Part shown: piece after piece, positions 19,631 through 20,993 of the stretch
Layout: every line of letters begins with the position of its first letter
How positions within the stretch are numbered: position 1 is the stretch's first letter
Source: a virus
Length of the DNA: 64,000 nt
Strand: one strand, 5' to 3'
Virus record (IMG/VR): IMGVR_UViG_3300045988_126785
Span: 1-64,000 of that record
Position numbers and translations under genes: made by a program
Notes under the pieces: model-generated
Database searches by the model: none
Seen by the model: only the letters and a program-made list of their open reading frames with translations
What the model was told of the DNA's origin: nothing

Positions 19631-19661
19631 ACGCCGCCCCTTTGGGCGGCGTTCTTTTTTA
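19630..19661. terminator. terminator between convergent genes
   Basis: AACGCCGCCC, loop CTTT, GGGCGGCGTT, then CTTTTTT. Confidence 0.75.
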
Positions 19662-20993
19662 TTTGAAACATTCATAAAGGACTTCTTCCTCAGTGTTTGT
19701 CCTCCACATTTTTGCAATTATCACTTTCGGCTGAATATCAAAAACAGTTGCCGAATATTTCATTCCGCAGTCCATTTTTGGGGCATACACCGCCGCCCAA
19801 TCTCCAGATAGATGTCCTATTGGGTTCCCATCTTCTGTCTGAACCAGAATAGCATTGCGGTCAAATTGATTGTCCGGTTCTCGCTTAAATGTCAGACTGT
19901 GCCCCTTGCTCAATCTTGAAATCGTAACTTTGTCGGCGCAAAACTTCATCCCTACAATGGCTACTTTCTCTGCTGTCGGTTTATGTGCCCCACATTCCTC
20001 CCAATTTGATACATTGTTTGCAAACTTGTTTTTTAGGCTTTCATACATGTCGCTATCTACGGGAAGAATCTTAAATTCAGGGTGTTCTTTTTGTAAGCCG
20101 GCAATCTTCTTTCGGCTTTCGTTATCCCAAAAGCCTTTGACCTCTAAAATTGTGTTATTGGCAAGAAAGAAATCCGGCAAGTAAAAATCTTCTCCAACTT
20201 TGTAAGATTCTCGTTCATATTCATATGGAACATTTAGTGCATTTAGTATTCGACTCACATTAGCTTCCCAAGAGCTTCTGACTGTTCTTCTTAAATCTAA
20301 CCGATACCCTTTGTGAAACGGAGTTTCTTCCATCTCACAAATCATATTCCTGCTTGAAATAAACCCATTCCTGTCTGTAATTTCAATAAATGGTGTCTCA
20401 CTTTCTCTGAGTGCGGAAAAACAGCTATTAGCAAGCGGATTTTGTCTATCTTCATATTTTTTTACCCATGGGTAATATGTATCTGCAAGAGTAAAATAGC
20501 TAACGTTTATCTCGGCTATTTCTTCAATTTTTTCAGGGGAAAATGCCGCAATTTCCTTTAGTACGCTTAAAATCTGCTCCTTATCCCCGCTGTCAAAGCA
20601 GAAGTACGTATATCTCTTGAACAGTTCTGCGGGTGGTTCAACTTGCTCCGCAGCCTCTCCGTCTGGTATATATTTTATAGACGATTCATAATATCCGTAC
20701 TCCGAAAAATATGGAAACATTATTTTATCTAACATCTTTCCCCTGAAAAATGAATCTTCAGAGCCACGCACATCACACGCAAAATATGTTATCTGTGAAA
20801 AGCCATCCCCATCTGGAACGACTTTGATTCCAAACGCCTTTGTATTGCTAAGCTCCTCAATATACCGTTTCTTTAAAATGTTGGGGACTTTCTCAGTTCG
20901 ACCAAAAAAGTTAATTGCCTCAGTCCTTTTATGGGCAGCGAAATATGCGCAAAGTGCTTGTTCTGTTTCTTTCCCTTCTTTGTAAGTAAACAA
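19659..20993 (-). CDS. three-part protein: unknown N-domain, PD-(D/E)xK nuclease core, C-terminal HIRAN domain
   Basis: Contains YLPDFFL...ILEVKGFWD and REPDNQFDRNAILVQTEDGNPIGHL. It is strongly AT-rich relative to its flanks. TTG start is inferred. Confidence 0.7.
   Translation of the reverse strand: MFTYKEGKETEQALCAYFAAHKRTEAINFFGRTEKVPNILKKRYIEELSNTKAFGIKVVPDGDGFSQITYFACDVRGSEDSFFRGKMLDKIMFPYFSEYGYYESSIKYIPDGEAAEQVEPPAELFKRYTYFCFDSGDKEQILSVLKEIAAFSPEKIEEIAEINVSYFTLADTYYPWVKKYEDRQNPLANSCFSALRESETPFIEITDRNGFISSRNMICEMEETPFHKGYRLDLRRTVRSSWEANVSRILNALNVPYEYERESYKVGEDFYLPDFFLANNTILEVKGFWDNESRKKIAGLQKEHPEFKILPVDSDMYESLKNKFANNVSNWEECGAHKPTAEKVAIVGMKFCADKVTISRLSKGHSLTFKREPDNQFDRNAILVQTEDGNPIGHLSGDWAAVYAPKMDCGMKYSATVFDIQPKVIIAKMWRTNTEEEVLYECFK

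Follow-up and report, generated by a model that had tools for sequence, protein, structure and literature searches.

The 64,000-nucleotide stretch of viral DNA analysed here (positions 1 to 64,000 of IMG/VR record IMGVR_UViG_3300045988_126785; hereafter 'the window') carries one gene that runs against all of its neighbours, set between an aminotransferase gene and a tyrosine integrase gene and divergent from genes for a ribbon-helix-helix (RHH) regulator and an anti-repressor (Table 1). Its 444-amino-acid (aa) product consists of an orphan N-terminal region, a T7 endonuclease I-like domain and a HIRAN domain, and we refer to it below as the nuclease gene. Every other gene from 16443 to 23619 lies on the plus strand. 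The open reading frame (ORF) begins with TTG, 9 nt downstream of an AAAGGA ribosome-binding site (RBS), and relatives keep this start position, the close ones with TTG and a GGA-rich RBS and the distant ones with ATG and AAGGAG.

The composition of the gene is foreign to the phage that carries it. Its G+C fraction is 0.394 against 0.567 for the genome, and when the whole genome is scanned at gene length the minimum falls on the nuclease gene itself (z = -5.2), the lowest value elsewhere being 0.475. At third codon positions (GC3) the fraction is 0.36, compared with 0.65-0.84 in typical genes of the same phage. This is a property of the family: at all 30 relatives' loci examined the gene has a G+C fraction of 0.38-0.43 against 0.48-0.59 in its flanks, lineages of only 38% identity among them. 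The record consists of one contig of 74,855 bp whose ends repeat 119 bp exactly and in direct orientation, and hence is a complete circular phage genome (74.7 kb); a prophage lying inside a host chromosome is thereby ruled out, which makes expression in a lysogen, as the preliminary description of this locus had it, an assumption. The closest relatives sit on phage-sized contigs whose host labels are uncultured Clostridia and Oscillospiraceae, and distant homologs come from Bacilli and Clostridia.

Table 1. Features of the nuclease locus and of the genes referred to with it (window coordinates; a dot marks features without a strand).
Feature	Position	Strand	Evidence
Aminotransferase, class-V/cysteine-desulfurase-like; left bound of slot	18551..19630	+	PF00266, E = 1.8e-31; conserved in related contigs
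G+C-rich hairpin terminator; left edge of cassette	19629..19654	.	Terminator scan; 11-bp stem with 9 G-C pairs
Single-gene cassette (terminator, ORF and RBS)	19639..21022	.	blastn against L112
2.9-kb accessory module (nuclease, RHH, anti-repressor, 77-aa ORF)	19639..22574	.	blastn junctions; present or absent as a unit
Nuclease gene, three-part protein	19659..20993	-	ORF list and translation; TTG start, RBS, G+C and GC3 (see text)
HIRAN domain, residues ~342-444	19662..19970	-	PF08797, Foldseek, HLTF motif alignment
T7 endonuclease I-like PD-(D/E)xK domain, residues ~201-335	19989..20393	-	PF05367, PHROGs, PDB alignment
Orphan N-terminal region, residues 1-~200	20394..20993	-	AlphaFold2 model; two ferredoxin-like units
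Shared control region	21024..21063	.	Promoter scan, inverted repeat
RHH (Arc/CopG-like) regulator, 55 aa	21081..21248	+	PF01402 (RHH_1), E = 2.3e-7; phrog_876 repressor, E = 3e-15
Anti-repressor, ORF6N/KilA-N type, 3' of RHH gene	21469..22290	+	PF10543, E = 2.8e-15; phrog_4608, E = 9e-48
Tyrosine integrase; right bound of slot	22612..23619	+	PF00589, E = 1.6e-17
The phage's own Holliday-junction resolvase	61629..62150	-	phrog_190, E = 8e-27

The three-part protein

The middle of the protein scores 39.4 bits against the Pfam family Phage_endo_I (PF05367; cut-off 29.1) over residues 236-331. The same region matches an endonuclease (phrog_945, E = 8e-17) and a Holliday junction resolvase (phrog_9019, E = 1e-12) among the PHROGs, and phmmer against the PDB finds T7 endonuclease I (1m0d, E = 1.2e-8). 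On alignment to 1m0d and 2pfj, the T7 catalytic residues E20, D55, E65 and K67 fall on E243, D274, E284 and K286, all four of which are invariant in 22 full-length relatives and also in 43 diverse members of 23-81% identity. A full-length AlphaFold2 model built from the 22-sequence alignment (mean predicted local distance difference test score, pLDDT, 87; predicted template-modelling score 0.76; monomers only) is matched by Foldseek to 1m0d and 2pfj with probability 1.0, a template-modelling (TM) score of 0.34 and a high root-mean-square deviation, as fits a swapped segment that has been modelled unswapped; T7 endonuclease I resolves four-way junctions as a domain-swapped homodimer with composite active sites. 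Judged by profile threshold and catalytic residues, then, the domain belongs to the T7 endonuclease I family, and its mode of action on branched DNA is probably the two-metal PD-(D/E)xK cleavage used by T7 gp3.

The C-terminal part is, by profile threshold, fold and pocket residues alike, a HIRAN domain. It scores 45.2 bits against PF08797 (cut-off 24.7; residues 344-423), and in Foldseek it superimposes on the stand-alone bacterial HIRAN protein Lp_0118 (3k2y) with a TM score of 0.83 and on the DNA-bound HIRAN domain of human HLTF (4s0n, 4xzf, 5bnh) with scores of 0.65-0.68. The HLTF motif R-D-P-N-N-P-Y-D-K-N-A-I...G-H-L aligns with R371-E-P-D-N375-Q-F377-D378-R-N380-A-I...G393-H394-L, so that the HLTF 3'-end pocket residues N90/N91, Y93, D94 and H110 correspond to D374/N375, F377, D378 and H394. 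All 43 relatives have N375, D378 and G393, and at least 90% of 22 close ones keep H394. The roles of these pocket residues are reportedly set out in the HLTF structure papers, where D94, whose position D378 takes in the motif alignment, is said to contact the 3'-OH. By analogy, this HIRAN domain is expected to bind free DNA 3'-OH ends. Prokaryotic HIRAN domains have been described as uncharacterised (PMC11090510).

Residues 1-~200 form a confidently modelled block (pLDDT mostly 74-95 in the full-length model) of two successive beta-alpha-beta-beta-alpha-(beta) units, which no model in Pfam, NCBIfam or the PHROGs matches. Foldseek with the full-length model relates this region weakly to tandem ACT/ferredoxin-like regulatory subunits (E about 1e-3), and a model of the N-terminal region by itself (pLDDT 68) gives a best E of 3.4e-3 with TM scores of at most 0.33 and nothing in the PDB at E <=1e-3. 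We did not adopt an ACT-domain identity, as the resemblance is one of beta-alpha-beta-beta-alpha-beta topology only. A profile of the region, searched against 1.84 billion representative proteins, recovered six clusters, the strong ones being family members or short N-terminal fragments. Because it has no significant sequence or structure relative outside the family, we regard the region as an orphan module.

The wider family comprises about 66 clusters, many of which share only the nuclease and HIRAN half and have other N-terminal regions instead. One 566-aa member (P0050) carries an additional C-terminal PcrA/UvrD Tudor domain (PF21196, E = 5e-9), pointing tentatively to RNA polymerase as a recruitment site for some members. 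Public databases name the relatives only 'HIRAN domain-containing protein' or 'hypothetical', and whole-word literature searches found no paper on an endonuclease I-HIRAN fusion, although a 2006 paper on the HIRAN domain reportedly mentions fusions to nucleases of the restriction-endonuclease fold. A tblastn search of 50,697 deposited phage genomes returned no record spanning at least 80% of the protein, and only T7-like gp3 matches to the nuclease domain.

The preliminary description had drawn attention to a 444-aa ORF opposite in strand to its neighbours and richer in A+T, and had read in it a PD-(D/E)xK core, a C-terminal HIRAN block and an unrecognisable N-terminal region. On each of these points the closer analysis agrees: every peptide motif quoted is present in the translation, and the nuclease assignment has been refined to the T7 endonuclease I type.

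An exchangeable cassette beside the integrase gene

Twenty-nine close phage contigs were fetched by means of the flanking aminotransferase gene, which is 67-98% identical in them; their integrases are 94-99% identical, whether or not the intervening DNA is present. In 15 of the 29 there is nothing between the two genes, and the integrase start lies 36 bp after the aminotransferase stop. In nine the slot holds the nuclease, RHH and anti-repressor genes and a 77-aa ORF, and five keep the anti-repressor gene (four of these five also an RHH-like gene) but have other DNA in the nuclease position, including a paralog of a zinc-ribbon membrane protein. The commonest unit of gain or loss among these relatives is the whole 2.9-kb module and not the nuclease gene alone. 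Nested within the module is a single-gene cassette: against relative L112, which has other DNA here, blastn homology stops at 19636 and restarts at 21023, and homology with the 'empty' relatives stops at 19638, within the hairpin of the terminator (in L105 no hairpin is found there). The cassette thus brings its hairpin terminator and its RBS but no promoter region; the one candidate leftward promoter (-10 TATAGT with a weak -35) falls past the cassette end at 21022, within the control region of the RHH gene.

Some phages with an adjacent aminotransferase gene of only 68-69% identity carry a cassette that is 96-98% identical, and the cassette is missing from phages whose aminotransferase is 98% identical, a pattern that indicates modular exchange. 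The nuclease gene is thus dispensable cargo of foreign composition, exchanged horizontally and lodged in a regulatory slot. Both the patchy presence among the 29 relatives and the foreign composition are what is expected of a moron, and the replacement of cargo among near-identical phages strongly supports that earlier view of the gene.

Several observations on the slot deserve mention in their own right. A 13-bp imperfect direct repeat, CGTGAACGCCGCC at 19626-19638 and CCTGATACGCCCC at 22575-22587, bounds the 2.9-kb module, with both copies overlapping a TGA stop, and may have served as microhomology for its gain or loss. In L124, L125 and L131 the slot holds a divergent 341-aa ORF (L124:8156-9181, minus strand), whose product has transmembrane segments at its ends and an extended coiled-coil, beside a 71-aa membrane ORF (L124:7920-8135, minus strand); neither has a Pfam match, and together they could be another exclusion-type cargo. 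The zinc-ribbon membrane protein of the window (17352-18074, plus strand) has 57-58% identical paralogs at L112:7103-7879 and L124:7106-7885, and since such a paralog fills the slot between the aminotransferase and RHH genes in some relatives, the zinc-ribbon gene is itself duplicated or exchanged cargo.

Presence and absence that differ so sharply between relatives, junctions that are precise, short imperfect repeats at either end of the module and a cassette more conserved than the neighbouring backbone DNA are also what might be left behind by a selfish homing-type element, one that cuts cassette-free alleles at co-infection, is copied in by repair and so passes from one related phage genome to another. 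PD-(D/E)xK homing nucleases are known to exist, and the N-terminal region gives very weak LAGLIDADG fold matches (probability 0.1-0.2). We nevertheless consider this origin, which the preliminary description had offered as an alternative, highly improbable. Searches of domain libraries and of folds detected no sequence-specific DNA-binding domain, and HIRAN and endonuclease I domains recognise DNA structure and not sequence. The slot holds unrelated cargo in other relatives, homologs occur at different sites in unrelated backbones, always beside a regulator and not next to a conserved target gene, and the commonest indel unit, as noted, is larger than the nuclease gene.

Nor is the gene a housekeeping resolvase of the phage. 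The genome encodes its own Holliday-junction resolvase (Table 1) and, beyond the window, a RecT-like annealase (phrog_148; genome 64507-65496) and a RecE-like exonuclease (phrog_434; genome 66995-67639), a recombination module that runs on the lytic strand. With this separate module in place, and with 15 of 29 near-identical phages lacking the nuclease gene, a role as the phage's housekeeping debranching enzyme is ruled out.

The control region and its genomic settings

The hairpin at the left edge of the cassette has a T-run on the plus strand only. The terminator had been described as shared; a hairpin with the T-run needed on the plus strand is indeed present, but the minus strand has none, so that only half of the claim is borne out. 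At the other end of the gene, the divergent promoter and operator previously proposed to be shared with the RHH gene are both found. A near-consensus rightward promoter, TTGACA-17-TATATT, occupies 21024-21052 on the plus strand (-35 at 21024-21029, -10 at 21047-21052; 11/12 in the scan), and a candidate leftward -10, TATAGT at 21045-21050, overlaps the rightward -10 and lies 51 nt before the start codon of the nuclease gene. A perfect 9-bp inverted repeat, GTCACGCAT-N12-ATGCGTGAC at 21034-21063, is the putative operator.

This arrangement recurs across the family even as its parts change. A candidate nuclease-strand -10 close to consensus (TATAGT or TATAAT) lies 51-60 nt before the start in five lineages (the window, L001, L006, L024 and L138), nested between operator repeats. 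The operator design itself varies by lineage, being an inverted repeat in the window (GTCACGCAT/ATGCGTGAC) and in L001 (CACACCT/AGGTGTG) and a direct repeat in L004 (TTGTTGCTACAA twice) and L138 (TTTTGTCTGGCAAAAG twice); in all four, the repeats flank a TATAAT-like hexamer, and the divergent -35 TTGACA lies about 30-38 nt from the nuclease start. All 14 phage loci inspected have a divergent ORF of 47-71 aa, 66-194 bp upstream, followed by an anti-repressor-like ORF. The majority look like RHH proteins in sequence, those of the window and of L006 with a Pfam RHH call, and regulators, operators and anti-repressor types all vary between lineages. The control geometry is that of an immI-like switch, in which the two promoters could be either mutually exclusive or co-repressed by one operator-bound protein.

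This same geometry bears on a different explanation, namely that the nuclease is an early-infection or induction function, expressed along with the anti-repressor under their common control region, which helps the phage directly by attacking the forks of the host or of a resident prophage, or by processing stalled or branched phage DNA, and so acts as a takeover or replication booster. The inverted repeat of the operator spans both overlapping -10s, such that one repressor could switch both promoters, and the linkage to an RHH gene and an anti-repressor gene holds in 14 of 14 phage loci. Characterised relatives of endonuclease I (gp3 of T7 and T3, and the endonucleases of cyanopodoviruses) act in lytic growth, and the Tudor domain of P0050 suggests recruitment to transcribing or replicating complexes. 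However, more than half of the near-identical phages do without the gene, and the phage already has a resolvase/RecT/RecE set. The gene also points the opposite way to every flanking early or regulatory gene, has a terminator of its own that insulates it, and shows an unameliorated foreign codon usage that is atypical of core lytic genes. On balance we regard an early function as possible but rather unlikely.

As a lone opposite-strand gene among phage-like genes, the nuclease gene was found in six independent settings: the lineage of the window, a lineage with an 81%-identical protein, a lineage of ~110-kb phages at 38% identity, a 36%-identical homolog elsewhere in a related backbone, a region of a Paenibacillus chromosome, and one further contig. 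The 36%-identical homolog (L138:6317-7561, plus strand) occupies another site in a backbone that shares HU, aminotransferase and integrase genes, where it too stands alone on its strand with a small divergent ORF upstream; its position at a different site of a related backbone points to independent insertion events. In two distant cases the homolog is part of the cargo of a recombinase-bearing island, next to DUF499/DUF1156/PLD-SNF2 genes or to a DUF2326 gene.

Other genes of this phage are worth recording. A second integrase gene lies at 72148-73416 (plus strand) of the genome, in addition to the one that bounds the slot, and a second anti-repressor gene lies in the early region (genome 69595-70401, minus strand); the integrase-proximal RHH/anti-repressor module is optional. 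At least five proteins are DNA-methyltransferase-like, including those at 1392-2686 (minus strand), 11820-13721 (plus strand), 57433-58194 (minus strand) and 59346-61175 (minus strand) of the window; one of the phage's methyltransferase-like proteins is fused to a primase-like region, and their number suggests heavy investment against restriction. ARAGORN calls a tRNA at 15185-15259 (plus strand) whose type it leaves undetermined and whose anticodon it gives as two bases, 'aa'; the tRNA stands within a block that also holds tRNA-Gly, tRNA-Trp and tRNA-Gln.

Possible function and comparison with known systems

The catalytic residues and those of the 3'-end pocket are intact and, as their conservation indicates, under purifying selection, and the product is very probably an active, structure-specific nuclease guided by DNA 3' ends. 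We rate it as a single-polypeptide nuclease of the conflict type, assembled from known domains and an orphan module. As to what it is for, we tentatively favour protection of the lysogen or resident phage against competing phages, a reading to which we give a little less than even weight. Taken as a whole, then, the interpretation given in the preliminary description is partly supported, its anti-phage role and its expression in the lysogen being the conjectural part.

A mechanism can be proposed along the following lines. The endonuclease I-type core would cut branched DNA, and the HIRAN domain would anchor the enzyme on a free 3'-OH, with the dimer-forming junction nuclease then cutting the adjoining branch. 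Likely substrates would be branch points that carry a 3' end, such as forks with a nascent leading strand, D-loops and reversed forks, as well as intermediates of recombination-dependent or rolling-circle replication. The first three would be preferred and are abundant in the recombination-dependent and concatemer-forming replication of phages. The N-terminal double alpha/beta module probably gates or oligomerises the enzyme, by analogy with the variable N-terminal regulators of Shedu (bioRxiv 10.1101/2023.08.10.552793). The gene is carried as cargo at the divergent position of an immI-like RHH and anti-repressor region beside the integrase gene, outside the core life cycle. Its most likely part would be in contests among mobile elements where, by severing a superinfecting phage's replication or recombination intermediates, it would most plausibly protect the lysogen and its resident phage. 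Within this proposal, that the nuclease is active, which substrates it prefers, what the N-terminal module does, when the gene is expressed and whether it counters phages are all matters of inference.

Several points weigh against a protective role. The genome is a free circle and its relatives lie on phage-sized contigs, and we infer lysogeny from the presence of integrases and anti-repressors. The operator repeat that spans both divergent -10s could mean co-regulation with the anti-repressor, and hence a function in early infection or induction and not in lysogeny, and the characterised endonuclease I homologs are debranching enzymes of the lytic cycle. No PADLOC model matches beyond single domains, and under the proposed mechanism the enzyme would somehow have to spare the host's own forks. 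Finally, the surroundings of one homolog are those of an ordinary chromosome, with housekeeping-type genes and none of the markers of mobile elements. That homolog would suit an ordinary accessory of DNA repair, active in fork or junction processing and hitch-hiking on phages and mobile elements with no part in conflict, as would the action of eukaryotic HIRAN domains at stalled forks (PMC5778457, PMC8262856). Yet the distribution is overwhelmingly borne by phages and mobile elements, the gene shows a scattered occurrence, horizontal exchange and foreign composition, and no conserved partnership with repair genes is seen; a repair accessory of this kind therefore appears very unlikely.

A more specific version of phage protection is that the enzyme, acting for the resident phage as a 3'-end-guided cutter of D-loops and forks, aborts homologous recombination initiated from an invading 3' end. 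Its targets would be the recombination-dependent replication of superinfecting phages and, equally, the transformation-driven 'chromosomal curing' that deletes a prophage; the overlapping promoters would silence the nuclease when the anti-repressor operon fires, sparing the phage's own intermediates. We consider this combination quite unlikely, but were it true a prokaryotic HIRAN domain would have its first assigned function, and there would be a new single-gene principle of immunity, one that recognises DNA structure and a free end and not sequence or modification.

Regardless of which reading is right, the endonuclease I-HIRAN protein gives a small and readily testable handle on what prokaryotic HIRAN domains do. 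The joining of a known junction-cutting core to HIRAN in a single-gene unit leads to a sharp prediction, namely that branched DNA is cut at a place set by a 3'-OH end, and the series of presence, absence and replacement in near-identical phages is the pattern expected of genes of inter-phage conflict. Should the gene confer resistance to phages, it would represent a defence family that PADLOC as searched lacks, with recognition of non-self by structure plus end; should it act in early infection, it would be a new kind of takeover nuclease. Under either reading the enzyme could serve as a reagent for mapping 3'-ended branch points.

Among known defence systems we looked for membership in PADLOC and NCBIfam, and the idea was dropped. 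In PADLOC, PDC-M03B matches residues 343-425, that is, HIRAN only (best E = 1e-7), and PDC-S68 is marginal; in NCBIfam nothing matches, Bax1 reaching 17 bits against a cut-off of 500. PDC-M03B is probably the partner of a HipA kinase. HIRAN proteins have been described as partners of HipA-like kinases with a predicted role in defence, and the HIRAN domain has been proposed to sense DNA ends in such systems, in a defence or toxin-antitoxin setting (PMC8262856, PMC11706625). Also, a transmembrane HIRAN protein has been annotated within the lysogeny module of a pneumococcal prophage (10.1101/2024.08.13.607808). With the candidate system PDC-M03 (a HipA-like kinase plus HIRAN, of the hipIN/HipL type) the present protein shares the HIRAN domain only: its gene adjoins aminotransferase and RHH genes and no kinase, which sets it outside that system, and its effector is a nuclease on the same polypeptide.

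In design the protein resembles Shedu. Shedu proteins are PD-(D/E)xK defence nucleases that act as single proteins, have N-terminal sensor domains that vary (bioRxiv 10.1101/2023.08.10.552793) and recognise DNA ends (bioRxiv 10.1101/2023.08.10.552762, 10.1101/2023.08.10.552793). The present protein likewise consists of a single polypeptide with a PD-(D/E)xK core and an N-terminal region that varies within the family. However, the Shedu (SduA) end sensor is an N-terminal clamp, whereas here it would be a C-terminal HIRAN domain for 3' ends, and the nuclease belongs to the endonuclease I subfamily. The protein has no DUF4263 (PF14082) match at E <=1, and no Shedu model appears among its PADLOC matches, so that it is not a Shedu protein.

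The nuclease domain itself is closest to T7 endonuclease I (gp3), with which it shares the PF05367 match and all four catalytic residues. T7 gp3, however, is a stand-alone enzyme of ~149 aa that belongs to the core lytic cycle, whereas here the domain sits between a ~200-aa orphan module and HIRAN, and is encoded by a dispensable cargo gene on the opposite strand in a phage with a separate resolvase. The HIRAN domain has the same fold as those of HLTF and Lp_0118 and the same R-[DE]-P-x-N-x-[YF]-D-x-N-A-I...G-H-L pocket motif. In HLTF, it steers a SNF2 translocase to reverse forks; fused to a nuclease, as here, recognition of an end would lead to cleavage and not to remodelling.

For the genetic arrangement, the nearest analogue is the immI region of phage P22, in which mnt and arc-ant are found with sieA as a neighbour. 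As with P22 immI and with morons in general, an insulated, foreign and dispensable gene stands divergent from an Arc-like RHH gene and an anti-repressor gene, with overlapping promoters and an operator between them. The difference lies in the cargo, which in P22 immI is a membrane exclusion protein or a repressor and in the present phage is a DNA nuclease.

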